Virus genome (UHGV): UHGV-0201389
Length of the DNA stretch: 28,978 bases
DNA from: a virus
Reading direction: 5' to 3' (one strand)
Positions 2,440-28,978 of this stretch are shown piece after piece. Each line of letters begins with the position of its first letter. Position 1 is the first letter of the stretch. The notes under the pieces were generated by a model. It was not told the origin of the DNA, ran no database searches, and saw only the letters and a list, made by a program, of their open reading frames with translations. Position numbers and translations under genes: made by a program.

Positions 2440-3963
2440 ATGTTTAATTTTTTCAAACGCAAAAAAGATATACCCGTGAATCCGGTTAAGAAAATCGGTA
2501 TTCGCCAGCACCGCAAATTATTTGTAGATCGTAAAATCGAAGAATTCACTAAGGATTTACAAAAACGCTCAATGGGTCTACAGGAAAACGACCGATTAGA
2601 GGGCAGTATGGCGCGTCAGGTTATCGCTGGCAGCATTAACAGTGCAATCAAGGGATCTGCATCACGTCTATACAATCAAGGCCGTCACCTTGCTTTGCAT
2701 ACGTCTATCGGTGCTCGTTATTGCCAGCACGTAATTGATTCCGTGGTAGGCACTGGTTTACAGCCGCGCACCTTCGTTATGAAGGGTAATGAATTGGACG
2801 TTGAGACTAACACCGCTATTGAGAATGCTTTTTGGCGTTGGGCGCGTTCTCAGAAACGATTCTCACGCAACGGAAAAGTTAACTTCCTTGAATGCTTAAA
2901 GCTAATGGAAAAAGAGCGTGTGATGGGTGGTGATGCGTTTCTGGTACTCCATGAAGATGGTAAGGATCTGCAAGTATCCATTTACGGCGCGGATTATGTT
3001 GATTGGGCGGACCAGCGCGTTTTAGACAACGGTAATACTGTTTACGCTGGCATCGAATATGAAGATGAAAAACCCGTTGCATATTGGTTTAGACGTCGTG
3101 ACATGTTCACGCAATCTTTCAGCACCGACCGTTATCGTATTCCGGCTGAACGAGTATTTCACTACTTTATCCCTAGCACAGCCGAAGCATTACGCGGCGT
3201 TACTGATTATTTGCCAGTAATTAAAGATATTGCTCACATGGATAGTTTTAGAGAAACAACGATAATTTCTAAACGTGTGGCCGCAAGTAGCATGGGCTTC
3301 ATCACAAGCGACAAAGAAAGTCAAGACTCTTTTGATGTTGGTGAAGACGAGACGGAAAACTATCAACCACCGACAATGATCACCGACTTCGAACCGGGCG
3401 CTATCCACCAATTAGAACCGGGGCAAGATATTAAAACGGTACAATCAAATCAGGGCGGTGATGATTTCGATAAATTTAATGAGGCCATGCTAACGGCAAT
3501 TGCGATGGGTCTCTCCAGCTTTAAACAAGCCCTTACGGGAGATACAAGTTCAATTAACTACTCCAGCGCGAAATTCGGTCATAATATTGAATCCGCTCGC
3601 TTTAAGACGCATCAAGATCGCTTAATTGACACGGTCATCCTTCCGTTATTTCAAGCATTTCTTGAACACGCGGTGATTAACTCTAAAATTAATGTTCGTA
3701 TGACTCAGATCGAATCTATTTTAGATGCAACGACAATTATTAGACCGCGCGTTACGTCAATTGAACCCATCAAAGATATAAACGCGGAAGTTCTCCTGAT
3801 TGACAAGGGTTTAAAATCTAAATCTGCGGTTATTATGGAAATGGGCTACGATCCTGAACAGACATTTAAGCAAATTGAATCAGAGAGACACGCACTAAAT
3901 ACATGCGTCGTGAGTGAGGGTGAGACTGAAAAAGAAAAATTGCCTGATACTCAAAATGAATAA
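2440..3963 (+). CDS. Portal protein
   Basis: 507 aa ORF directly after terL and before the capsid gene; size, acidic C-terminus and gene order typical of portals; SD AAGGA upstream. Confidence 0.75.
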   Translation: MFNFFKRKKDIPVNPVKKIGIRQHRKLFVDRKIEEFTKDLQKRSMGLQENDRLEGSMARQVIAGSINSAIKGSASRLYNQGRHLALHTSIGARYCQHVIDSVVGTGLQPRTFVMKGNELDVETNTAIENAFWRWARSQKRFSRNGKVNFLECLKLMEKERVMGGDAFLVLHEDGKDLQVSIYGADYVDWADQRVLDNGNTVYAGIEYEDEKPVAYWFRRRDMFTQSFSTDRYRIPAERVFHYFIPSTAEALRGVTDYLPVIKDIAHMDSFRETTIISKRVAASSMGFITSDKESQDSFDVGEDETENYQPPTMITDFEPGAIHQLEPGQDIKTVQSNQGGDDFDKFNEAMLTAIAMGLSSFKQALTGDTSSINYSSAKFGHNIESARFKTHQDRLIDTVILPLFQAFLEHAVINSKINVRMTQIESILDATTIIRPRVTSIEPIKDINAEVLLIDKGLKSKSAVIMEMGYDPEQTFKQIESERHALNTCVVSEGETEKEKLPDTQNE

Positions 3964-4005: not shown

Positions 4006-6066
4006 ATGACAGCAAAAAAATTACGTCGTAGCGTTGCGGTAGATGCCCCTGATTTTATCGAAGAAAAAGACGAACGAATTATTGAATTGGCTTTCTCTAG
4101 CGAGGCTCCTTATACACGTTATTACATGAATCAGGACGGCGAGCAAGTCGAATTAAAAGAGATTCTCGTACACGATGAATCAGCGGTTGATCTATCCGTT
4201 TTAAACGAAACTAACGCAAGTCTTCTGTTTAATCACAATCTGGATCTTCATATCGGCAAGATTGTTCCTGGCTCCGCTCGTATCGATGAAGATCGTGTAG
4301 GCCGTTGTCTTGTTCAATTCTCCAAAGTAGGCCAACTGGCTAATGAATGCTTTGAGAAGGTAAAGGAATCCACATTATCACAGGTTAGCGTCGGTTATAA
4401 CGTTCTTGATGGTAAAGCCGATTTTAGCAAAGGGATCTATTACGTTACTCGCTGGCAACCATATGAAGTAAGCATTGTTACGTGTGCCGCAGATCCGTTT
4501 AATGCTGGTGTTGGACGCTCTCTAAATACAGACAACGAAATGATTGTTTTGGAGGGTGAACAAGTGGAAGACGAAATTAAAGAAGAAATTAAACCGGAAG
4601 ATGAAGAAAAACGTTCCGAAGAAGATAAAGAGGAACAGGAAAATGAAGAAATTGATTCCGATTCTGGAAATAGTGTTAACAGTGGCGAAGATGTGGAAAA
4701 CCCGCAAGAAGTAACGCCAGAAGAAAAAGAAAAACGTTCCGAAGATGAACCGGAAGAAGAAATTAAACCGGAAGAAACAGAAGAACTAAATAAAGATACA
4801 GACGAGAACGACGAAACGGTAGAAGAATCCGAGACAGTCGAAGAAGAAAAGATTGAAGACGAAGAAAAACCGTTTGAACGTTCTCGCGAAGATACCGCCG
4901 AAATTCGTGCTATCGGAAAACATCTAAATATTCCAGAAGCAACGATTGAAGCTGCAATTAAAGATAGTGCCGTGACTATTGAAAATTTTAAAGAAAAAGC
5001 ACGCGCACTAAATACTACCGAATCTAAAACTTTTGTTAAAGGAAAAATTACCATGACCGATACCATTAAAACTCTGGAATCTCGTTTCGATCTTAATAAA
5101 GCTGTACGTGCAATCGCAGAGGGTAAAGCACTGACTGGCGCAGAAGCTGAATATTCTCAGGAAGAAGCACGTAAAGCCGCAGCGCGTGGTCGTGCACAGC
5201 GTTCTAACTCCGTATTCATTCCGGCGTCCGCTCTGCGTGCTAGCCAGAACATGGAATCTCTGAAACCTGTAGTTGGTGAAGAAATCCGCCATGATTGCTT
5301 CGTTGATATGATCATGGAACGCTCGATTCTGGGTAAATTGGGTGTTCGTACCATTAACGCAACTGGTCCGGTATCTCTGCCGTCTCTGACTTCCAGCAAT
5401 CTGGAAAACTTCGGTTTTGTTGCAGAAGGTCAATCCGCTGGTGAAGGTACTATCAAGTTTGCAGCACAGCCGATGACTCTTAAGACATTCAATGGAATTG
5501 TTCCTGTAACTCGTCAGGCTGCTATCACTCTGCCTAACATCGGTGCTATCGTTGGTGAGCACATGCTGAAACACAGTGCTATCGCTCTGGAAAAAGCGAT
5601 CCTGTCCAATGCTGCTAACCCTAACGCTCGTGATGGCCTGACTAAGATCCTGACCGACGCTGGCAAAGTTAAACAGATTGATTGGACCTATGCCGAGTTC
5701 CTGAAACTGGTTGCTGAACTCACAGACAAAGGTTTTAACGAATCTGATCTGGCATTTGCTACTCGTGGTGTTGTTAAAGCTGAACTGGCAGCGCAACTCA
5801 AAGCAGCTAATGTTCCGGGCTTCCTGGTAGAAGGCGATAAACTGGTTAACCGTCCGATCTATGGCTCTGGTGTAGTTGCTCAGGATACCATGCTGTTTGG
5901 TGACTTTAGCTCCCTTGTTGTTGCAGACTTCGGATCGCTGGAACTTGATTGCGACGATACCACAGGTCGCGCGGCTGGCAACCTGTACTTCCGTGTATGG
6001 GCTGATCTGGATTGGGCTGTTATGGACCATAGCGCACTGACCGTAGTTCAGAAGAAAGGCGAATGA
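4006..6066 (+). CDS. Prohead protease - acidic scaffold-like linker - major capsid protein fusion (686 aa)
   Basis: N-terminal ~180 aa resemble HK97-type prohead protease; residues ~185-290 are an extremely Glu/Asp/Lys-rich low-complexity region; C-terminal ~350 aa look like an HK97-fold major capsid protein and use strong high-expression codon bias. No separate protease or scaffold gene between portal and capsid. Ends in TGA. Confidence 0.8.
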   Translation: MTAKKLRRSVAVDAPDFIEEKDERIIELAFSSEAPYTRYYMNQDGEQVELKEILVHDESAVDLSVLNETNASLLFNHNLDLHIGKIVPGSARIDEDRVGRCLVQFSKVGQLANECFEKVKESTLSQVSVGYNVLDGKADFSKGIYYVTRWQPYEVSIVTCAADPFNAGVGRSLNTDNEMIVLEGEQVEDEIKEEIKPEDEEKRSEEDKEEQENEEIDSDSGNSVNSGEDVENPQEVTPEEKEKRSEDEPEEEIKPEETEELNKDTDENDETVEESETVEEEKIEDEEKPFERSREDTAEIRAIGKHLNIPEATIEAAIKDSAVTIENFKEKARALNTTESKTFVKGKITMTDTIKTLESRFDLNKAVRAIAEGKALTGAEAEYSQEEARKAAARGRAQRSNSVFIPASALRASQNMESLKPVVGEEIRHDCFVDMIMERSILGKLGVRTINATGPVSLPSLTSSNLENFGFVAEGQSAGEGTIKFAAQPMTLKTFNGIVPVTRQAAITLPNIGAIVGEHMLKHSAIALEKAILSNAANPNARDGLTKILTDAGKVKQIDWTYAEFLKLVAELTDKGFNESDLAFATRGVVKAELAAQLKAANVPGFLVEGDKLVNRPIYGSGVVAQDTMLFGDFSSLVVADFGSLELDCDDTTGRAAGNLYFRVWADLDWAVMDHSALTVVQKKGE

Positions 6067-7877: not shown

Positions 7878-10800
7878 ATGCAATCAATCCAATTTAAACG
7901 CACACAGACGGCTGGTAAAAAGCCAACGCCGGAACAATTACAGGTCGGTGAAATCGCTATTCAGATGGCAGACCATGTAATTTATACCAAAGATAAAAAT
8001 AACGCAGTAGTTCAAGTAAGTGTTTCTCCTGAAAGCCATAATGCTTTAAACACGAAAGTAGACAATAACAAGAAAACTACTGATTCTACTATCGCGGCAA
8101 ATAAAACCGAAGCTGCTAACGCTCTGGCTACCGCTAAATCTGAACTGAATAACACCATTACCACGAAAGATACAGCAACCAATAAGCGCATTGATGCTAC
8201 TAACACCACTGTTAGTAACTTAACCCAGACAGTTACGGCAAATAAAACCGACGCTGACAGCAAACATACCACTTTAACTAACACTGTTGCGGCAAACAAA
8301 TCAGCTATTGAAACTACCGTAGCGAATAACAAACGAGATGCGGACAATAAAATCTCAGCTTTAACCACTACGGTTAATGACAATAACACCGCGATCAATA
8401 GCCGTGTTGATGCCACCAACACCAATGTTAGCAATCTGACCAAAACCGTTACAGCTAACAAGTCTGATGCTGATTCTAAGATCTCCAGCTTAACGAGTAC
8501 CGTTGCGGCTAACAAATCAGCCATTGAAACTACGGTAGCGAACAATAAACGCGACGCTGATACGAAGATCACCAACTTAACCAACACTGTTAATAGCAAC
8601 CACACCGCCATTAACGCGAAGGTAGACAAAAACAAGACCGATGCAGATGCAGCGATTGCAGCCGCTAACCGTCGAATTGATGGTATTGAAGGTAGTGCCG
8701 ATGCTGCTTACATCAAGAAGAATACCAATACCTATCATCATGGCTATCTGTTAAGCAAGACTGCTAACTACTTTGATGATACCGGTGCTCGTAACCTTGA
8801 TTATTTTGGTGCGTTTCGTCCGAACAATGCCGAAGGGTGGGGTAACTTAATCCTTAACATTCCTCATTCTGGCGGTAAAGCACACGGTCGCGGCTTTGAG
8901 TTCCATTATGGGTCTAGCTCATCTCAGGTTAAAACCTATGGCTTTGATGCTAACGGTGCTAAAAGATTCAGCTATCGCATGTATCACGAAGGTGATAAAC
9001 CTACACCATCGGAATTGAACGTTTACAGCAAACAAGAAGTTGATCGTATGTTTGTTAAAAACGTTAAAATGTCGGTTCCTTCTGGTGATGCAACTCGTGG
9101 ATATTTTAAGATTGCAACCGCAATGATTCCGCAGCAAGGCAGAATGGCATTTATTCGCATCTATGGTGGTAACGGTTATAACGTTAATTCTTACGATCAA
9201 GTTGACTTTCTTGAAATTGTTATCCGTAGCGGCAACGGAAACCCTAAAGGAGTTAGTATTGCTGCATATCGTCGAAATGCTAAAAATATTCATCAAGTAT
9301 TTGCGGTTAACACTTCCGGTGATAACTACGATATCTACGTTAACTACGGTCGTTATACTGATAACGTTATTGTCGAATATGGTAAAACTAACGATGTTAC
9401 ACTGACGGTACATGACGTTCCTGAAATAACTCTCGTTAAGCCGTCCACTGGTGTTACTGATGGTAAAGTAATTACCATGTTTAACACAGAGAACAAAGCC
9501 GGAACTATTCGTTTTGATGATAATACACAGGGAACTTACGATATTATCAGTTTGTGTAATGATACTGGTGATGGTAAAAAATATCTTCGTCAGTTCCGTA
9601 GTAAATCAGGTCATACTATTTGGCATGAAACTGTTCAGGGTAGCGTGTACCGCCTAGCTACTGGCACTACTGACTCAAACGAAGTTCTTAAAATTACCGA
9701 CCGCACGCTGCAAACTGGTCGTGCTGTTCTTGATGGTGGTAATATTCGTTTAGAACGCCAGACAGGGAATAGTAACCTTGTTGAATATTGGGATCGTCGT
9801 AACGGTGCTAACGTTCGTCAATCATGGTTTGGTTTTGGTAATGCCGACACTAACGCATTCCAGATCTATAGTGATGCTGGTAAAAACAACTTTGCGTTAG
9901 AACAAAGCGGTCAGATCTCTCTTAATGTTGGTGCAACAAAAATTGTCCATACCAACGGGCAATATATTTCAACTAACGCTGATGCATATCGTATGATTTA
10001 CGGTAATTACGGTGCATTCTGGCGAAATGATGGTGTTAAAACCTATCTTCTGTCTACCGCCGAAAATGATAAATGGGGTAGCTGGACTGGAAACCGTCCA
10101 TTCATTTATGAATTTAGTTCCGGTAACGTTAATTTAGGTGGTGATTCCAATAAATCCGCATTGACCTTAGAAGGTGCAAGCAAAGCCGCTCGATTTGGTG
10201 GTCATGTTTATACTGGCGGTAACTTACATAATACTGGACAGCATATAACGATGGAAGCCGGACTTGCTGGACAATCCCGCGATTTTATTCGCTTTAACCA
10301 TTGGGGTGATAGCAGTAACGGTCGTGATAACGTCCTGTATGTGGAAGATAGCAAAGGACGTCATTTCAGCACCGAGCGTAATATGGCTACTGGTGGATTG
10401 AAAGCAAACTTCTTAGGAGACTTTGAAGTTGGTGGTAAATTGACATGGGGTAAAGGTACAGCACAATCCTCGTTTAACTGTCGTGTTTGGGGTAATGCTG
10501 ATCGTAAACAGGTTTTAGAGTGGGCTGATGAAAGCGGTTGGCATTTCTATAGCCAGCGTGCAGGTGGTCCAGGAACTACAGCGATTCAGTTTAGTGTAAA
10601 TGGACAAATCAACGCACAAAACTTGAACGTTTCTGGTAAGGTTACTACCCCGCAAATTAGCGCATTTGGTGTAAACGTTGCTAATGGATTAGGTGGCAAC
10701 TCAATTGTTTTGGGTGATAGTGATACTGGCTTTAAGCAAAACGGCGACGGTATTTTAGATGTATATGCTAACAATGTGGCAGTAATGCGTTTTACTTCCG

Positions 10801-20755: not shown

Positions 20756-21034
20756 ATGACTGAAATTATATATGGCGGTATCGGTGTTATCGCCTTAATT
20801 TGTGGTGGGCTTTGGAGACTCCACCGAAATCAATTAGCCACAGAAAATAGGTTGTCTAAATTGGAATCCAGCGACGCATTGTTAAACCAGAAGTTTGAGA
20901 CGATGCAAAGTAACCATGACCAGATTGCCGAGAGAGTTTATCGAATGGAACAAACCCTGCACGGTATAGAAAAGAAAGTGGTTGCTATGGACGCCAAATT
21001 TGACCAAGTTATCGATTTACTCAAACAAAAATAA
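20756..21034 (+). CDS. Membrane-anchored coiled-coil protein (92 aa), possible lysis-associated (spanin/antiholin-like) or exclusion protein
   Basis: N-terminal hydrophobic helix (IIYGGIGVIALICGGLW) followed by a heptad-like charged region; SD GGGGG upstream; AT-rich codon usage distinct from the structural genes. Confidence 0.5.
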   Translation: MTEIIYGGIGVIALICGGLWRLHRNQLATENRLSKLESSDALLNQKFETMQSNHDQIAERVYRMEQTLHGIEKKVVAMDAKFDQVIDLLKQK

Positions 21035-21053
21035 TAATACTAAGGGTGAATAT

Positions 21054-21224
21054 ATGAAGAATAAACTTAAAAAATACTTTGGTTATCTCTTAATAATCGC
21101 CCTCACTTATAACGTAGCATTACGACCTCTGCTTACGTCCTTCGGGCTTAATCTTCCGGCTATGGCTGTGAATGATGAATTGCTTAGGACTATAGCGGGG
21201 GTCTTTTCGTTATTAGGGGGCTAA
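21054..21224 (+). CDS. Small membrane protein (56 aa), holin-like candidate
   Basis: ATG preceded by AAGGGTGA; basic N-terminus then hydrophobic segments (YFGYLLIIALTYNVAL, IAGVFSLLGG). The longer ORF from 20982 overlaps the upstream gene and lacks an RBS. Confidence 0.45.
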   Translation: MKNKLKKYFGYLLIIALTYNVALRPLLTSFGLNLPAMAVNDELLRTIAGVFSLLGG

Positions 21225-22229: not shown

Positions 22230-22583
22230 ATGTTAAGCAAATACTTTTCCCGCAAGGAATTCAAATGTAAATGCGGAAAATGTGATTATGATACTATCGA
22301 CGCTGAATTGCTGGTAGTTCTCGATGATGTTCGTGAACACTTCGGGAAACCAGTAATTATTAACAGTGGGAACCGTTGTCCGACTCATAACAAGAATGTA
22401 GGCGGGGCAACCAATAGCTATCACGTTCGAGGCCGTGCGGCTGACATTGTAATCAAGGGTGTCTCCCCTGATATTGTCCATGCTTATCTTGATGGGAAAT
22501 ATCCTACTCAATATGGTCTAGGCAAATATAAAACCTTTACGCATATTGATAGCAGGTCGAAAAAATCTAGATGGAATGGTTAA
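22230..22583 (+). CDS. Peptidoglycan peptidase, Peptidase_M15 (MepK/YcbK-like zinc hydrolase) - probable endolysin
   Basis: YFSRKEF...SGNRCPTHNKNVGGATNSYHVRGRAADI...HID matches the His/Asp/His zinc-binding pattern of M15-family cell-wall peptidases; TAAGGGGGTAATATATG initiation motif; followed by a strong terminator. Confidence 0.65.
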   Translation: MLSKYFSRKEFKCKCGKCDYDTIDAELLVVLDDVREHFGKPVIINSGNRCPTHNKNVGGATNSYHVRGRAADIVIKGVSPDIVHAYLDGKYPTQYGLGKYKTFTHIDSRSKKSRWNG

Positions 22584-23012: not shown

Positions 23013-24506
23013 TTATGCGAGCATTATACGTTTTTGAGTCCAGTCGAATTTATCGGATATATAACACTTTATTCTTTCAAGCGCATGACTAACAGCATAA
23101 TTCTTACGGGTAACTTTTCCATTCTTACCCACAATGCAAAGGTCGTCTATCAAATCCCATACTACCGCAATTGCTTTACTACCATGTTTCCTAAGAGCAC
23201 GTCCTATTGATTGCCGGACAATGGTTGATTCTTTAACCGGATGACCAAAGATGACATGGTGTAGATTCTTAATCGAAACACCAGTAGAGAAAACACCATA
23301 GGAGGCAACTACAATCAATCCTTTCTCATTTTCAGCCATTTTCTTTAAGGCATCGCGTTCGGCGGTGGTAATCTCACTGGAAACGTAATAAACCTTATCG
23401 TAAACGCGCTGTAATGCATTATAAAGCATTTTTCCATGCTTAGAGTACCGGAACATCAAAAATACGTTTTCTTGCTTTCTAGCGAGTTTTAAGGCCAATT
23501 CACAAGCCAGTTTATTCCTTGCTTTGTGACCATTGATGAATTTAATCTCTTCCTGATAATCTTTACCCCGCATTGCTTTACATTCTTCATCCTTGTACTT
23601 GAGGAAGAGAGCATTAATCTTAAGCTGGGTAACTTGTCCGTCATCCATCAATTGTTTTATTGCTACTATCTTCTGAATATCACCAAACAACCCGACATAT
23701 TGCATTAAATGGCATTTTGATTCTTTCGGGGAACCAGTCATACCGATTTTGAACTGGCAGTGATTCATTCCGTTGATGATGTTGGTGATATTCTTTGCAC
23801 TGGCACGATGTGATTCATCAACTATCAACATTCCATATTGTCGGAACCATTCAGGAGGCATCTTGCAAGCTGATTGCCATGTACTGACAGTGATTAACCT
23901 GTCTCCCGGATGTTTCCCGCTACCACTCATCATTGTATGGATTGCTTCATGAGGGAATAGCCTATAATCGACAAAATCATCCCTCATTTGAACCACCAGC
24001 GATGTAGTCGGGACAATGATTAGAATCTTTCCGGTGTAGTTCTCCAGATACCAACGAGACAGCATACAAGCAATCAATGACTTACCCGCACTGGTAGGAA
24101 GAACCAGCATTCTACGGCGATTATGGATACCCTGAAATACTGCCTCCCTTTGATACCAGTAAGGATTGATTTTATTGCTACCGGAATACACTTCTAAAGA
24201 GTCAATCCATGAATCAATCTGTTCTTTGGTTACATCTTCCTTCTCAAGCAATCTGGGGTCTACCCATACGCTATAGCCCATGTTTTTAGCGAAGATACCC
24301 AATGTTTTCAATAATCCGATTGGCAGGGTATTTTCATGCGTAAACAGTCTTATCTTTCCATCCCAGCCGGAATATTTGTAGCGGGGGCTAAATCTAGCCC
24401 CTTCAACCTCAAACGAGAAATAATCTCTTAATTCCATCCCAATGGAAGGAGAGCATTCAACCTTAACGAAACTGTAATCTTGAAAATGAATGTTAATATC
24501 TTGCAT
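23013..24506 (-). CDS. uvsW: UvsW-type SF2 DNA helicase (start at ATG 24506; the listed ORF extends to GTG 24515)
   Basis: Walker A LPTSAGKS, DExH-type motif II IVDESH, and an N-terminal domain (HFQDYSFVKVEC...LRDYFSF) characteristic of T4 UvsW-like helicases; ATG overlaps the stop of the upstream gene (TAATG). Confidence 0.85.
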   Translation of the reverse strand: MQDINIHFQDYSFVKVECSPSIGMELRDYFSFEVEGARFSPRYKYSGWDGKIRLFTHENTLPIGLLKTLGIFAKNMGYSVWVDPRLLEKEDVTKEQIDSWIDSLEVYSGSNKINPYWYQREAVFQGIHNRRRMLVLPTSAGKSLIACMLSRWYLENYTGKILIIVPTTSLVVQMRDDFVDYRLFPHEAIHTMMSGSGKHPGDRLITVSTWQSACKMPPEWFRQYGMLIVDESHRASAKNITNIINGMNHCQFKIGMTGSPKESKCHLMQYVGLFGDIQKIVAIKQLMDDGQVTQLKINALFLKYKDEECKAMRGKDYQEEIKFINGHKARNKLACELALKLARKQENVFLMFRYSKHGKMLYNALQRVYDKVYYVSSEITTAERDALKKMAENEKGLIVVASYGVFSTGVSIKNLHHVIFGHPVKESTIVRQSIGRALRKHGSKAIAVVWDLIDDLCIVGKNGKVTRKNYAVSHALERIKCYISDKFDWTQKRIMLA

Positions 24507-25075
24507 TAGTTCCACTCCACACTTGCAATATTCTTTATATTGTTTAGTGATTTATTGCAGTAGTGGAATGTTTCAGTTTTGCCGTATTCAATCCCGCCTA
24601 TACCCACATCCAACATTCTCTTTATTGCTCGCTCAGTGGCTAGCGCATGTTTCATTGATGGCATTTCACGAGCATAGACAATATCAAAGTTATGACCGGG
24701 ATTGCGTAAGCCCAGATTAACCCTACGTTTGATAATCGATTTTGTTACACCAAATTTACCAATATCGCCGGATTGCATCACATAGAGATATGGTACACCC
24801 GCTTTATATTGAAAATAATCACTCTTGAAACATACACAGCGTTTGCCTTCATTAAGCAGGTTAGTAGCTGATTTGTCGGCTCTATCACCGCAGCGAGTAC
24901 ATGTAAGAGCAATTCTCGTGTGAAGCCCTTTAAACTCACCCAGAAAGCCATGAAAGACTAACGGTAAGTCATTATCTTTGATGTGAGTAAGAATGCGTTG
25001 TTCTAATGCTGGTGGAGTTACAGCACGGGATGATTTAGGAGTAAAAACAATATCTTTAGCCATTACTGGAATCAT
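24506..25075 (-). CDS. Zn-ribbon + T5orf172/GIY-YIG-like domain protein (189 aa)
   Basis: CTRCGD...CVC zinc-ribbon-like Cys cluster followed by YLYVMQ...KFGVTKS...R...GKTETF, matching the T5orf172 (GIY-YIG-like) pattern; SD GTGAGG upstream; coupled to the helicase gene. Confidence 0.65.
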   Translation of the reverse strand: MIPVMAKDIVFTPKSSRAVTPPALEQRILTHIKDNDLPLVFHGFLGEFKGLHTRIALTCTRCGDRADKSATNLLNEGKRCVCFKSDYFQYKAGVPYLYVMQSGDIGKFGVTKSIIKRRVNLGLRNPGHNFDIVYAREMPSMKHALATERAIKRMLDVGIGGIEYGKTETFHYCNKSLNNIKNIASVEWN

Positions 25076-25229
25076 ATAGACCTCACTTTAACTTATAGGC
25101 AAAACCCTCAATATGGTTGGTTTGTAACTTTAGGGTCGCGGATTATATATCAAAGTTAGTACAGATGCAATAGTGAGATAATTTTATCCAATAAATAGTA
25201 GTGAACTTATAATTTTAGAGGAAACTACT
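25076..25229. promoter_or_regulatory. AT-rich divergent intergenic region with candidate sigma70-like promoter for the + strand gene
   Basis: TTGTAA (25122-25127), 16-nt spacer, TATATA (25144-25149); SD AGAGGA before the ATG at 25230; a leftward promoter for the helicase operon is expected here too but was not resolved. Confidence 0.4.
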
Positions 25230-26255
25230 ATGAAACTAGCATTTGCCAAAGACATTGATTTTGTGAAAGTTGGTAAGCAGAAAACACCGCAATTCTACGA
25301 AGAAATCTGTATTGAATATGCACACAAGACTAAGAAGACTTTCAAAGGATTTATCCTACCGTGGGAAGCCAACCGAACCAGAACAATGTTTATTGACAAT
25401 GAAAGCGGTAAAGAATCTACACCGATGTTGATCAACGTTCGTACATCATGGGGGAAGGTTAAAGGATGCAAACTGGACAAGGGTATCAGTCCGACGGTAA
25501 AACATAAGGCAATGAATCTTTCCAGCGAGAAGAAGCAACAAAAATTAGAGAAACTATACTCAGATGTGAGAAAAGCCGTGGAACACGGTAATAATAAACT
25601 GATTCGAATCACAGGAGAGTTACCAAGCCGCTATAAGTCATATGCTGAATGTAAATGTCTTATCCATAATGAAATCTTTGTTCGAAATTGTCGGGACTTG
25701 ATTCATAAAGGTAGCGCCGCGTGTCCTCAGTGCTTATCTGTCATGCGTTCTATGCAAAATGGTATTTCTCATTACAAATATCATGGAAAAATCAGACCTG
25801 TATCTCTCTATATCCAGTCTCTAGATAAAGAGTTCATCAAATTTGGCATCTCTATCAATCCAGAAGCACGAATGAGAGAACAACAAAGAAACTCACCATT
25901 CATTCATAGTCTGGTTTATACGCATGAATTTAAGGAAGGTTGGAAAGCAGTTGATGTTGAATATGGAATTAAAACCATTTTTAAAGGAAAGAAACTAACC
26001 ATTGATGATTTATCGACCGGATATACAGAAACACGGGATTACAAGTTACTCTCAGAAATTATTAAATTCGTTGATGATTACATCAAAACCGATCCTACCG
26101 TACCGCAATACATTCAAGACGAAAATGAATTCTGGTCACAGATTGGCGGTGATTTTGAACTAGAAGAATCAACGTTCGTGTTTCCAGATACCAGCGATGA
26201 GGAATATTACAATAATTTAGCAGAACTTGATTTAAGCCCTTTAGACACTCTCTAA
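25230..26255 (+). CDS. Zn-ribbon + T5orf172/GIY-YIG-like domain protein with extra N-terminal domain (341 aa)
   Basis: CKC...C...CPQC Cys cluster followed by LYIQS...KFGISINPEAR...GYTETRDY, paralogous in architecture to the 189-aa protein on the opposite strand; acidic C-terminus. Confidence 0.65.
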   Translation: MKLAFAKDIDFVKVGKQKTPQFYEEICIEYAHKTKKTFKGFILPWEANRTRTMFIDNESGKESTPMLINVRTSWGKVKGCKLDKGISPTVKHKAMNLSSEKKQQKLEKLYSDVRKAVEHGNNKLIRITGELPSRYKSYAECKCLIHNEIFVRNCRDLIHKGSAACPQCLSVMRSMQNGISHYKYHGKIRPVSLYIQSLDKEFIKFGISINPEARMREQQRNSPFIHSLVYTHEFKEGWKAVDVEYGIKTIFKGKKLTIDDLSTGYTETRDYKLLSEIIKFVDDYIKTDPTVPQYIQDENEFWSQIGGDFELEESTFVFPDTSDEEYYNNLAELDLSPLDTL

Positions 26256-26328: not shown

Positions 26329-28008
26329 TTAAATTCCAAATTCTTGCAATGGACCTGGTATTTCTTCTTCTGGTTTCCAGTTCTTATCTGTCAGCATGTC
26401 TAAACATGGATGCAGAACAAGCCCGTTACTTTCCAGAATCTGCCTATCATTGATAGTCTTCAAATCAATGAATATCCGGCCTTTCCTCGTTCCTCTTGAA
26501 TTTTCTATTACAACTCTCTGGGTCTTACCATCAACGTATTCCAGTACAAACAAGTTTTTGTTCCTGTCAATCCTTCTACACCCGATCCGCTTTAGAGCTT
26601 GCTTAATCTTAAACCGGACCTTGATTCGTTCCTCATTGTAAACATCTTCTAAATCAAATTCTGCGAGCTTCTCCCAGCCTTGAGAGTCCACAGAATACAT
26701 TTCCTCTTCTGCCATCTTAATCTGATTGTAGAGTGTTTCACGCTCGCTATTAAGGGCAGTAATCTGATCGGCTAGTTCCTTCGTTGCTCCTGTCATAGCA
26801 GAAAGGGCGATCAGGTTATCAATCTTGCGTGATATTTCATCAATCTGTACTTTCAACGCCGGAACCGGGTTAGCCTTATCCTCAGCAATCCAGATTTTAT
26901 CAGCCAGCAATTGCAATACAGCTTTCTCTAATTGGTCGCCGCGAAAACTCCAGTTTGGATGCTCGCAATCAAGTCTACGTGAACGTGTCGCATCACATGT
27001 ATAACGATACTGGTCAGAACGTTTGTTTGTTCCCTTCACTTTAACCATAGCGCAACCGCAATGATCACATTTCAATAGGCCAATGCCACTAAGCAAGGGG
27101 ATCGGTTTAACTTCTTCCTTATCTCCAAAATTCCATGCTCTAGCACCAATATTTTTCTTAAGGTGATAGAACGTAGGGTCGTCAATAACACGAGGGTAAT
27201 AATTGTTTAACTCATAGTTAACGCCATCTACAGAGACCTCCTTGATACCAATCAAAGCGCGGGTATGGAACAATCTTTCAACCATTGCCCGTGACCATTT
27301 TGAATGCTTCTTATTACTAACCGCTGGTGGTGGTGTATATGTCTCGTTAAGGTGATCCAGTATTTCGGCGGTTGAACGTCCATTCTTCCGTAATTCCACA
27401 ATCTCCTGAACAACAGGGAAGTATGTCGGATGAGGCAGCACATAACCGGAAGTGGTATCAGTCCACCACATATTCTTTCCGACTTCCTCGATAGCAACAG
27501 CCGGATTCTGGGGATTTTCTTGATGAGCTTTAATCTTAATCAATGCGCTTGAGTTAGTACGATTGCGCTTAGTCTGGCTTTCCTCGTTAGCCCTGGCAAA
27601 TAGCATGACACTCAAGAGTAAATCGATGGGATTAGCATTAACCGATTCACGGCTATACACTCTGCCATCCATACCAGTGACAATAGTTATTCCCCTACGG
27701 ATAATCGAGAGAAATAGCTCTTGTGCTTCAATGATGGACTGGCGAGAGATACGGTCCAAGTTTTCCACAACCAACCAGCTACCAACAGGAACGGATCGAC
27801 CAATCTCATCCAGAAAGCGGGATAATGCACCTGTTTTACTGTTAGCCCCTTTGAATGCTGATACACCAAAATCCTGATAGCTTGTAACTAGCTCAAGATC
27901 ATATTTTGCGGCAATCTCTGCGGCTGTTCTCTTCTGGCGTTCATAAGAACTACCATCCGCTTGCTTCATAGACGAGAAGCGAATATACGAATACAGTTTA
28001 GTTTTCAT
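26329..28008 (-). CDS. Large serine recombinase (integrase/resolvase family, ~559 aa from ATG 28008; the listed ORF extends to GTG 28059)
   Basis: N-terminal resolvase motifs YSYIRFSS (catalytic Ser), DFGVSAF, LVVENLDRISR; central recombinase domain; CDHCGC...C...C zinc ribbon; C-terminal coiled coil. Confidence 0.85.
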   Translation of the reverse strand: MKTKLYSYIRFSSMKQADGSSYERQKRTAAEIAAKYDLELVTSYQDFGVSAFKGANSKTGALSRFLDEIGRSVPVGSWLVVENLDRISRQSIIEAQELFLSIIRRGITIVTGMDGRVYSRESVNANPIDLLLSVMLFARANEESQTKRNRTNSSALIKIKAHQENPQNPAVAIEEVGKNMWWTDTTSGYVLPHPTYFPVVQEIVELRKNGRSTAEILDHLNETYTPPPAVSNKKHSKWSRAMVERLFHTRALIGIKEVSVDGVNYELNNYYPRVIDDPTFYHLKKNIGARAWNFGDKEEVKPIPLLSGIGLLKCDHCGCAMVKVKGTNKRSDQYRYTCDATRSRRLDCEHPNWSFRGDQLEKAVLQLLADKIWIAEDKANPVPALKVQIDEISRKIDNLIALSAMTGATKELADQITALNSERETLYNQIKMAEEEMYSVDSQGWEKLAEFDLEDVYNEERIKVRFKIKQALKRIGCRRIDRNKNLFVLEYVDGKTQRVVIENSRGTRKGRIFIDLKTINDRQILESNGLVLHPCLDMLTDKNWKPEEEIPGPLQEFGI

Positions 28009-28061
28009 ACCATTTCCAAACAAAAACGCCCCGACCGAAGTCGAGGCGATATTACACACAT

Positions 28062-28403
28062 TCAGTCTTTGAAGTCGATGGTCACGTTACCTTTAAGGGC
28101 AAGTTCCATTAAGCAACTGCGCTCATCCTTCATGCTCTTACACAATTTCATCCCATAAACGACGAGATTATCTTTCTCTTTCCAATATTTTTGTTTCTCT
28201 GCATAAACCTCGCTATATTCACTATCTTTGAGTGAGAGAGCATTTTCTAACTGGCTAATCTCCTGATTCAGATCCTTAATCTCAGCCTTAGTTGACCGGA
28301 TAGTCTCTTGATGTTGAGTATCGGAATAGTCATACCCACAAGCAAATCCACCAATGCCACCAACACACACAGAAACAATAATTGCGTAGATAGTCTTTTT
28401 CAT
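28062..28403 (-). CDS. Secreted or membrane-anchored coiled-coil protein (113 aa)
   Basis: N-terminal signal/anchor MKKTIYAIIVSVCVGGIGGFA with a possible cleavage or weak lipobox at FA-C; heptad-rich middle; two C-terminal Cys; SD AAGAGGA upstream. Confidence 0.6.
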   Translation of the reverse strand: MKKTIYAIIVSVCVGGIGGFACGYDYSDTQHQETIRSTKAEIKDLNQEISQLENALSLKDSEYSEVYAEKQKYWKEKDNLVVYGMKLCKSMKDERSCLMELALKGNVTIDFKD

Positions 28404-28444
28404 AATTGAATCCTCTTTGAATGAATTACGATATATTTATATCA

Positions 28445-28570
28445 TTAAAAATTGATGCTAATAACCAGACCAAATACCACCGCACCAATCAAATCAATCC
28501 AGTTAATACACAATCCGCTATATTCTTTCTTGAATGTCTTAGATGAAATGCCATCATGAAACTGTTTCAT
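28445..28570 (-). CDS. Small tail-anchored membrane peptide (41 aa, MKQFHDGISSKTFKKEYSGLCINWIDLIGAVVFGLVISINF)
   Basis: Manually translated sub-threshold ORF; SD GGGGTGAG; start lies 3 nt after the stop of the upstream 26-aa ORF. Confidence 0.4.
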   Translation of the reverse strand: MKQFHDGISSKTFKKEYSGLCINWIDLIGAVVFGLVISINF

Positions 28571-28573
28571 TGC

Positions 28574-28654
28574 TCACCCCATACTAACGACAAGATAAGA
28601 AAGACTAATCATAGTTGTGAGACTACCTCCCACGAATGAGATAAAAGCTAACAT
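28574..28654 (-). CDS. Hydrophobic micro-peptide (26 aa, MLAFISFVGGSLTTMISLSYLVVSMG)
   Basis: Manually translated; consensus SD AGGAG 8 nt upstream of the ATG; entirely hydrophobic. Confidence 0.4.
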   Translation of the reverse strand: MLAFISFVGGSLTTMISLSYLVVSMG

Positions 28655-28671
28655 GTTTGATTCTCCTAGTT

Positions 28672-28698
28672 TAAAAAGCGGTGGGAATTGCACCCACC
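28672..28698 (-). terminator. Weak intrinsic terminator/attenuator on the minus strand
   Basis: GGTGGG-7-nt loop-CCCACC stem followed on the minus strand by GCTTTTTAA, just downstream of the 89-aa ORF stop. Confidence 0.45.
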
Positions 28699-28708
28699 AA
28701 ATTAGAAA

Positions 28709-28978
28709 TTACTTCTTGCTAATAAACTCTTTGTAGATAAAATCTAAGACTTCCTTTAACTTCTTATCGGTGCCAATCATCGCCGGAAGTTCTTCTTTAA
28801 TATCGCGGGGAAGATACACATTACCTTTCCAGAACAAGCAACCACATTGAGCAATCGAATAGCTGAACATCCATTCACAATCTTGTTCAGTCTCCCAGAA
28901 TCTAACCTGCTCATCTTCGAGTTGAAGTTCGATTCCACGGCGGCGAGCATAGTTATGGATTGCTTTGGTAATGTTCAT
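28709..28978 (-). CDS. Hypothetical protein (at least 89 aa; N-terminus may lie beyond the window end)
   Basis: ORF running to the window edge on the minus strand; no recognisable motifs. Confidence 0.5.
   Translation of the reverse strand: MNITKAIHNYARRRGIELQLEDEQVRFWETEQDCEWMFSYSIAQCGCLFWKGNVYLPRDIKEELPAMIGTDKKLKEVLDFIYKEFISKK

Follow-up and report, generated by a model that had tools for sequence, protein, structure and literature searches.

Two conserved genes for predicted membrane microproteins between the attachment site and the integrase gene of an Escherichia coli prophage

The injection of phage genomes is blocked by HK97 gp15, a small inner-membrane protein of the YebO family that is encoded by a moron (PMC3594210). 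No paper on the prophage described here or on its peptides was found in the literature. The window, by which the whole analysed stretch of 28,978 nucleotides (nt) of the virus genome UHGV-0201389 is meant, ends at the integrase end of an E. coli prophage of approximately 37 kb, which is temperate, siphophage-like and equipped with a large serine integrase. The segment at 28062-28700 lies between the attachment site and the integrase gene (int). It contains two very short open reading frames (ORFs) of 26 and 41 codons and a gene for a protein of 113 amino acids (aa). Comparison of related sequences indicates that the two small ORFs are protein-coding genes under purifying selection. They are the sole elements of the local gene string that occur in essentially every relative, and hence its core. 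The reading that fits the region best, and that is held with moderate confidence, is that core membrane microproteins are combined with envelope-directed cargo in an island flanking the phage attachment site attP.

Both small ORFs lie on the minus strand. The 26-codon ORF, MLAFISFVGGSLTTMISLSYLVVSMG, occupies 28654..28574 and is preceded by AGGAG at 28667-28663, 8 nt before its ATG. The 41-codon ORF, MKQFHDGISSKTFKKEYSGLCINWIDLIGAVVFGLVISINF, occupies 28570..28445 and starts 3 nt past the TGA of the 26-codon ORF. A first-pass annotation of this DNA had described an all-hydrophobic 26-aa peptide with AGGAG as a consensus Shine-Dalgarno (SD) sequence, a tail-anchored 41-aa peptide 3 nt after it, and the co-orientation of both ORFs and the 113-aa gene with the recombinase. 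These descriptions are borne out by the coordinates, by the hydrophobic C-terminal region of the 41-mer and by the location of all four genes on the minus strand. Conservation in relatives had been proposed beforehand as a test, and its outcome favours coding with respect to the presence of the ORFs, their substitution ratios and their open frame. Fifty-eight sequences were compared, namely the window, 48 loci and 9 metagenome loci. Both small ORFs are intact in 57 of them, the one exception being a frameshifted 26-mer. The ratio of nonsynonymous to synonymous substitution rates (dN/dS; Nei-Gojobori method), where computable, is 0.04-0.3 for the 41-mer and 0.09-0.3 for the 26-mer. The proposed frame alone is stop-free in all variants, and the five other frames are closed. 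The 210-nt segment with the small ORFs is present in 57 of 5,426 complete E. coli genomes.

The 41-mer homologues detected in a search of 5.8 billion proteins form ten clusters of 40-41 aa with 63-98% identity, in which no variation occurs among residues 1-15, the hydrophobic C-terminal half varies and SIN[FI] is kept at the end. The invariant part belongs to the Lys-rich N-terminal head, MKQFHDGISSKTFKK, and these 15 residues are also retained in divergent relatives from a neighbouring enterobacterial genus, whose csgG is 83% identical in nucleotide sequence and whose integrase is 71-73% identical in amino acid sequence. Ser9-Ser10 of the 41-mer is encoded by TCA-TCT in the window and by TCT-AGC in the divergent loci. 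Because the codons have switched between the TCN and AGY families and the residues are unchanged, the protein sequence is kept while the codons change. The divergent relatives also contain a 26-codon ORF of equal length and pattern (MSVLISFAASTLLTIISFVYLVVNAV, MSVLISFASAVFITILSFVYMVVNAA or MAALLSFASAVVITILSYVYVVVSAV), with 52-56% nucleotide identity to the ORF of the window. Two E. coli loci contain a 25-aa replacement variant, MKLLELLILSIFSAF[VF]LAVYIVVIV, which has Tyr20-x-Val-Val at the same position, and homologous 25-26-aa peptides with this motif are encoded at 57 of the 58 loci. The 41-mer is always located upstream of a serine integrase gene at a prophage end, and when metagenome and IMG/VR contigs are scanned with a 41-mer profile, the same prophage family is recovered and nothing else. 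The micro-ORFs have no match in Pfam, PHROGs, NCBIfam or PADLOC, and a protein-database search with concatenated 26-mers returns only a natural fusion, P0004, which is described below. Taken from sequence comparison, it is very probable that the two small ORFs are real, translated microprotein genes.

The 26-mer contains no charged residue and has a grand average of hydropathy (GRAVY) of 1.62. The 41-mer consists of a hydrophilic N-terminal half, with four Lys residues in the head, and a hydrophobic stretch of 17 residues at its C-terminus. These profiles make a membrane location of both peptides highly likely. The 26-mer is predicted to be a bare transmembrane (TM) helix, and the 41-mer is predicted to be tail-anchored in an N-in orientation with a Lys-rich cytoplasmic head of 16 residues. 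The two peptides would be made together, and a small inner-membrane complex of both is probable. The gap between the two ORFs is 3-4 nt (4 nt in L007 and L010). An ATGA overlap (-4) takes its place in L021, and other loci have spacings of 9-10 nt or 181-220 nt. In L017-L020, whole inserted genes separate the ORF of the 26-mer from that of the 41-mer. The small ORFs are mutually in frame in most loci, and in P0004, a contig of 747 bp from ENA, a natural TGA-to-TGG change fuses them into a 68-aa protein. The AlphaFold2 model of this fusion consists of two helices (residues 2-35 and 39-67) with a predicted local distance difference test (pLDDT) score of 76. Programmed read-through from one small ORF into the other was rejected as a candidate, because the relatives differ in spacing and frame; read-through is therefore not a conserved feature.

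The 113-aa gene (28062..28403, minus strand) encodes an N-terminal hydrophobic segment followed by a long predicted helix. It is present in only 8 of the 5,426 complete E. coli genomes, as compared with 57 for the peptide pair, and is missing in 49 of the 57 carriers. In a megablast comparison with 979 nt of the region, the matches to most of these 57 genomes are confined to the terminator, the small ORFs and the start of the integrase gene, the flanking genes being replaced. The slot after the 41-mer is occupied by the 113-aa gene, by a gene for a secreted protein of 75 or 81 aa or of 132-139 aa, by a gene for a 130-aa lipoprotein with a canonical LTGC or LAGC lipobox, by an ORF of approximately 348 aa (L032), or by nothing. 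Extra genes also occur upstream of the pair, such as that for a 106-aa lipoprotein matching phrog_10370. The remote homologues P0016 and P0018 of the 113-aa protein are encoded in L026 and L027 on the other side of attP, between a TerS-like gene and the N-terminal ycdX fragment, and their genes point towards attP. In L064, the slot on the far side of attP is occupied by a gene for an LprI-family lysozyme-inhibitor-like exported protein, and no 113-aa homologue is present anywhere in this prophage. Thus, a mosaic island rich in envelope-directed genes straddles attP, and its constant members are the two micropeptide genes and int. The 113-aa gene itself is, with considerable confidence, interchangeable cargo and not a spanin gene.

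The family of the 113-aa protein is very narrow, because an exhaustive HMMER profile search gives 7 hits in 1.84 billion representatives. The conserved parts of the family are the N-terminal hydrophobic segment, which spans residues 5-21 in the protein of the window, and a C-terminal LCKxMKxxRxCLMELA motif with two Cys residues; the helical middle is variable. The AlphaFold2 model (pLDDT 68) contains helices at 28-89 and 94-105. A Foldseek search with this model returns nothing at E <= 0.001 in PDB or BFVD, and Pfam, PHROGs, NCBIfam and PADLOC give only sub-threshold hits that are typical of coiled-coil/TM composition. The sequence suggests an inner-membrane anchor, a periplasmic helix of approximately 60 residues and a short terminal hairpin with two Cys residues. 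The first-pass annotation had called this product a coiled-coil protein with a signal peptide. The exported or anchored coiled coil is retained, but a signal peptide or a lipoprotein is doubtful, because the lipobox-like site reads GGFAC in the window and GGFVC (Val at -1) in close variants, and because Cys is missing there in P0016-P0018. Since the lipobox Cys is not conserved, a signal anchor describes the N-terminus better than a lipoprotein signal does, and a lipoprotein is not supported. P0019 (153 aa) has the N-terminal anchor MKKTIAAIIVSVCVGAVGG in common with the 113-aa family and an unrelated C-terminal domain, which indicates, on the sequences compared, probable domain shuffling among the cargo genes.

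With respect to the features by which morons are recognised, presence or absence among syntenic relatives (as defined in PMC3594210) is seen for the 113-aa gene but not for the micro-ORFs, which occur in 57 of the 58 loci. A deviating base composition is found for neither, the GC content being 0.395 for the 113-aa gene, 0.33-0.38 for the micro-ORFs and 0.418 for the window, which are small differences for such short segments. Of an own promoter and terminator, the terminator at 28027-28048 is seen, and upstream of the gene there is only a palindrome that contains TATAAAT, without a consensus promoter.

The genes of this region form a co-directional string on the minus strand, in the order 89-aa gene, terminator, 26-codon ORF, 41-codon ORF, palindrome, 113-aa gene, terminator and int. 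The 89-aa gene (28709..28978) is the first gene inside the prophage and encodes a small cytosolic protein matching phrog_6147 (E 2.4e-31). The phrog_6147 family, to which no function is assigned, is common to large lytic phages such as phAPEC8-like Phapecoctavirus and RB49-like phages, and in relatives other small genes with cytosolic products take the place of the 89-aa gene. Between the 89-aa gene and the 26-codon ORF lies an intrinsic-terminator hairpin, GGTGGG-TGCAATT-CCCACC followed by CUUUUU (28679..28699, minus strand; -11.4 kcal/mol, z -3.1). A strong intrinsic terminator (28027..28048, minus strand; -16.7 kcal/mol, z -5.1) closes the 113-aa gene immediately upstream of the int start. 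Both of these hairpins with T-runs fold far better than shuffled sequence. The first of them is kept in E. coli loci of type A, and the loci of type B and the divergent loci lack either the T-run or the hairpin. Thus, of the terminator/attenuator that the first-pass annotation had placed before the small ORFs, the terminator is recovered in the window, but a conserved attenuator is not, the relatives of type B and the divergent ones having a degraded hairpin or none.

A perfect 14-bp palindrome, GATATAAATATATC, which includes TATAAAT, is located at 28430..28443 between the 41-codon ORF and the cargo gene. Its position is directly past the 41-mer stop and ahead of every cargo variant. In L021 the palindrome reads CGTTATAAATATAACG, which is a compensatory change, and its symmetry is therefore kept. 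The prophage contains one exact copy of GATATAAATATATC, and one looser match with two mismatches occurs elsewhere in L016. According to the fold computation the palindrome is weak as an RNA hairpin, and its sequence and position make it a candidate operator or promoter of the cargo gene. The terminator immediately before int is a different one in most relatives, where it reads GCCCCTATCGTTATAATACGCGGTAGGGGC; its loop contains a consensus TATAAT, and TTACTA or TTCACC lies 17 nt upstream of it (for example, L006 at about 10630-10680 and L017 at 5135-5175). The window has another hairpin at this place (28018-28055), which is preceded by TAATAT. A promoter in the GCCCCTATCGTTATAATACGCGGTAGGGGC hairpin of the relatives could start transcription inside the hairpin, and termination would hence be escaped.

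The integrase gene (26329..28008, minus strand) encodes a large serine recombinase of 559 aa with the Pfam domains Resolvase, Recombinase and Zn_ribbon_recom and a match to the integrase family phrog_95 (8.6e-61). The exact 113-aa protein is present in many E. coli chromosomes, where the gene string abuts csgDEFG-ycdZ-ycdY and a truncated ycdX. In L016, both halves of ycdX border the element of approximately 37 kb according to the RefSeq annotation. Related elements are bordered by truncated ycdX, hicB (L011, L014 and L064) or codB (L025), and are thus inserted within host coding genes. Alignment of loci from differing host sites places the host-phage junction approximately 40 nt upstream of the ATG of the 89-aa gene; the window therefore stops almost exactly at the prophage end. 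The insertions in ycdX, hicB and codB have one shared orientation relative to the disrupted gene (L013 at about 2960-3000, L014 at about 2230-2290 and L025 at about 2070-2110). At the hicB insertion, the toxin gene hicA stays intact beside the truncated antitoxin gene. The order of the element in L016 is small genes and integrase, a variable helicase/nuclease cassette, an M15 endolysin gene and the tail and capsid genes. Towards the far end, these are the lambda-J-like tail tip, tail genes, capsid, portal and large terminase genes, followed by a gene for a Rha regulator and a TerS-like gene (phrog_57). Near and distant DNA searches and tblastn against a cultured-phage database give no match to the 113-aa gene, the 41-mer or the DNA of the region; the 89-aa gene alone is matched. 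A scan of contigs for the integrase has L022 as its sole result, a 512-bp contig of an Actinacidiphila cocklensis assembly with a fragment 97% identical to the E. coli prophage integrase, which is most likely assembly contamination.

By analogy with known phage membrane proteins, the island flanking attP would act on the cell envelope, to the benefit of the phage or the lysogen. Rather than in lysis or killing, its most likely role would lie in hindering the entry of superinfecting phages or in modulating a membrane protein of the host. The best precedent is superinfection exclusion, since the entry of phage DNA is blocked by HK97 gp15. The first-pass annotation had named such a role for the coiled-coil protein, and the topology and the genomic position of the island products appear compatible with it. 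Superinfection exclusion or envelope modulation as the function is nevertheless a tentative assignment, which is possible but less than probable. Several points weigh against the favoured reading as a whole. The pair is present in nearly all relatives (57 of 58), which is the behaviour of core genes, and variability is usual for morons of superinfection exclusion. Conservation of the 41-mer is strongest in the cytoplasmic head, which suggests a possible partner in the cytoplasm and not an incoming tail. No characterised protein with a similar sequence or fold is detected in Pfam, PHROGs, NCBIfam, PADLOC, Foldseek or the phage searches. The family is narrow, being confined to E. coli and one neighbouring genus. 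Loci L003-L012 were retrieved with the 113-aa protein itself and are thus biased towards carrying its gene, and dS is saturated in the deepest pairs. Finally, no sigma-70-like promoter is found on the coding strand of 27800-28978 or in the 500 nt at the other prophage end, nor in the reconstructed attP with 420 nt on either side, even at relaxed stringency.

Since the space between the junction and the first gene leaves no room for a promoter, transcription would probably enter from upstream, across attP in the circular genome. The genes on the far side of attP in the relatives point in the same direction as the gene string. This arrangement suggests one transcription unit that would cross attP in the circular genome and would be severed by integration.

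The rival explanation that survives best, although it is improbable, is the one of the first-pass annotation, in which the small peptides disrupt the membrane, either as type I toxin-like peptides under the control of an antisense RNA or as holin/antiholin-like timers of lysis. Both peptides are indeed small, hydrophobic and of predicted membrane location, and their size and hydrophobicity match those of toxins of the Ibs, ShoB and TisB type. The sequence around them does not show the regulation of such toxins. The AGGAG consensus is exposed, and the fold of the leader is of ordinary stability (z -0.44). Antisense promoter-like sites number 4, as compared with 3.4 expected from shuffles. Rfam gives no hit at the family gathering score for the region or for the other prophage end, although sequence alone cannot prove the absence of a novel small RNA. 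The ORFs belong to an operon of co-directional genes, and in L017-L021 their translation is coupled to that of neighbours. As for a holin, no convincing one is identified beside the endolysin gene, the ORFs are in frame in most loci, and the natural 68-aa fusion with two helices has the size and topology of a pinholin. However, the frame relationship is not conserved (L007, L010, L021 and L017-L020), the ORFs are located 6 kb from the endolysin gene on the opposite strand, the 26-mer lacks a charged tail, and the C-terminus of the 41-mer falls within its TM segment. The late operon contains a separate ORF of 56 aa (21054-21224), for which two TM segments are predicted. With no antisense signal, no structured leader and no recognisable promoter, the type I toxin and holin readings are therefore without support, and this proposal of the first-pass annotation is not sustained.

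A bolder proposal, which is unlikely as it stands, is that the 26-mer and the 41-mer are obligate partners in an inner-membrane complex with a dedicated function, which would be an unrecognised core component of this lineage of serine-integrase phages. Such a complex may be a minimal block to DNA injection or a membrane-tethered regulator. In the latter version, the invariant 16-residue head would bind a phage or host factor and thereby make the decision on integration or lysogeny dependent on membrane state.

It is rather less likely that the products are early host-takeover factors made only from the circular genome, such as inhibitors of cell division or of transporters comparable with Kil, SidA and Blr, the 113-aa protein being a mimic of FtsB/FtsL. 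The apparent severing of the operon from any upstream promoter upon integration is consistent with this explanation. The combination of a TM segment and a periplasmic coiled coil in the 113-aa protein is also the architecture of FtsB/DivIC, and Pfam DivIC gives a weak hit (E 0.04). But this hit is far below the threshold, and hhalign against E. coli FtsB, whose sequence was entered by hand, gives a probability of 0.3%. In addition, the neighbouring cargo, which comprises a lysozyme-inhibitor-like protein, a lipoprotein and secreted proteins, looks like functions that benefit a lysogen.

The invariable location of the pair upstream of int raises the question of whether the microproteins serve the integrase module, either as leader or attenuator ORFs for read-through into int or as tethers or regulators of the integrase or of the integration-excision decision. 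In L017-L020 and L047, just 63-66 nt with a terminator hairpin separate the 41-mer stop from int. Terminators bracket the unit, and the invariant cytoplasmic head suggests a specific cytoplasmic partner. This explanation is nevertheless very unlikely. Selection acts on the amino acid sequence along the whole of both peptides and not just on the presence of an ORF, the upstream terminator is not conserved, and cargo genes of 75-139 aa (approximately 348 aa in L032), each with its own SD sequence, lie between the peptides and int in most loci. Direct coupling of the peptides to int is therefore broken by the intervening genes. For the same three reasons, attenuation by leader peptides was rejected as a candidate. 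We know of no precedent for a role of this type.

The first-pass annotation had also proposed that the coiled-coil protein is a spanin, and the 113-aa protein as the inner-membrane (Rz-like) spanin subunit of the phage lysis system is a highly improbable explanation. The protein has the architecture of such a subunit, with an N-terminal TM segment, a periplasmic coiled coil and periplasmic Cys. Five of the seven family members weakly hit phrog_739 'Rz-like spanin' (best E 1.2e-5), single members match phrog_214 and phrog_1327, and no other spanin pair is recognised in the window. Yet the partner is missing: apart from the 113-aa ORF, no frame of 27950-28978 contains an ORF with a signal and a lipobox, so that the suggested scan of the 113-aa gene for a lipoprotein ORF yields none, embedded or adjacent. 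The neighbours of the homologous genes in L026 and L027 do not encode lipoproteins either. The 113-aa gene lies outside the lysis cassette, 5.5 kb from the endolysin gene (22230-22583, plus strand) and on the other strand, and a terminator directly follows the endolysin gene. The 113-aa gene is missing from 49 of the 57 E. coli carriers and from the complete relative L064, which has the same block of lysis genes, and the family shifts between the two sides of attP. The probability given by hhalign against lambda Rz, the sequence of which was entered by hand, is 0.5%. The spanin proposal thus fails for want of a partner lipoprotein, by the position of the gene outside the lysis cassette and by its absence in relatives. 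A unimolecular spanin was likewise rejected, because the protein has no C-terminal TM segment, ending in the hydrophilic KGNVTIDFKD, and because the Cys of the pseudo-lipobox is not conserved.

The weakest explanation, with a negligible probability, is that the small ORFs are chance ORFs without a product in AT-rich intergenic DNA: ORFs of at least 20 aa are frequent by chance (63 in 4 kb) and no annotated feature underlies the segment in any of the 8 E. coli matches listed or covers the pair in the inspected RefSeq loci (a few GenBank records name the 41-aa ORF a hypothetical protein), but the small ORFs are more than chance because they are conserved, with length, frame and hydrophobic pattern kept at about 55% nucleotide identity, dN/dS well below 1, synonymous switches of Ser codon family and the five other frames closed.

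Elsewhere in the window, a gene for a UvsW-like helicase and two T5orf172/CapR nuclease-like genes are located at 23013-26255, between the endolysin gene and the integrase gene. The helicase is 74% identical in amino acid sequence to the helicases of RB49-like Krischvirus, whose genes also adjoin a homing endonuclease gene. This cassette is variable, being missing from L005, L012 and L014/L064, and suggests nuclease-driven transfer from T4-like lytic phages into a temperate phage. The M15 endolysin gene (22230-22583) closes the late operon at a terminator, and no annotated holin is found. Directly past the J-like tail-tip gene, 20756-21224 contains an ORF for a 92-aa protein with an N-terminal TM segment and a coiled coil, together with the 56-aa ORF mentioned above. 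By their predicted features, these two ORFs are better candidates for lysis or exclusion functions. At the far end of the prophage, the TerS-like gene diverges from attP (L016 36965-37905, L026 4049-5001 and L027 4134-5001), and the intergenic region of 360-400 nt contains a strongly conserved GC-rich block, GTCGCGTAGCGACCGC...GGGCTGCACTGCACCT, which may be a packaging or regulatory site. In the early region of L016, outside the window, 1.4 kb (33676-35066) contains no annotated gene and has no Rfam match at the gathering score.

Microproteins that fall under the thresholds of gene callers are systematically missing from annotation, and approximately 1% of complete E. coli genomes contain the present pair. 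A very small and genetically tractable module would be added to the phage tools that act on the envelope if the two peptides have a defined target in the membrane. The island flanking attP is a natural catalogue of candidate genes for exclusion or envelope modification. In addition, because the 113-aa protein resembles an Rz spanin and yet fails the defining tests, a tempting mis-annotation is corrected.

When the products of the island are compared with known systems, the 113-aa protein is like the lambda Rz/Rz1 and T1 gp11 spanins in its N-terminal TM segment, periplasmic coiled coil, periplasmic Cys and weak Rz-like PHROG hits. It differs from them in that it has no outer-membrane spanin partner, no C-terminal TM segment and no profile similarity to lambda Rz, and in that it is dispensable and encoded outside the lysis cassette. 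Pinholin S21 (68-71 aa, two TM domains) is similar to P0004 in length and two-helix topology and to the pair in its in-frame arrangement. In contrast, the pair consists of two cistrons in 57 of the 58 loci, with variable spacing and frame, without an adjacent signal-arrest-release (SAR) endolysin gene and without a dual-start motif. The type I toxins (Ibs/Sib, ShoB/OhsC, TisB/IstR and Hok/Sok) are, like the micropeptides, hydrophobic single-helix peptides of 19-50 aa that are often prophage-borne and often unannotated. Unlike those toxins, the pair is not accompanied by a detectable antisense or overlapping small RNA gene, a sequestered SD sequence or a long structured leader, and it is not a stand-alone peptide but two peptides embedded in an operon.

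The micropeptides are more closely comparable with KdpF, AcrZ, MgtS, CydX and Blr. They differ from these in that they are phage-borne, form a fixed twosome and have no identified partner complex or homology. They share with them a length of less than 50 aa and a single TM helix, the function of which lies in helix-helix contacts in these proteins, and the 26-mer resembles KdpF in its size and absence of charge. The exclusion morons differ from the island in that no sequence similarity and no own promoter is recognisable here and the micropeptides are core and not variable. Yet the 113-aa gene is moron-like in its variable presence among relatives and in its own terminator, and HK97 gp15, P22 SieA and T4 Imm are, as the island products are predicted to be, small inner-membrane proteins of phages or prophages, encoded at accessory mosaic positions, for which the envelope is the likely site of action. 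The products of the small ORFs and the 113-aa protein are new protein families among the known small membrane proteins of phages and the accessory genes of prophage ends.

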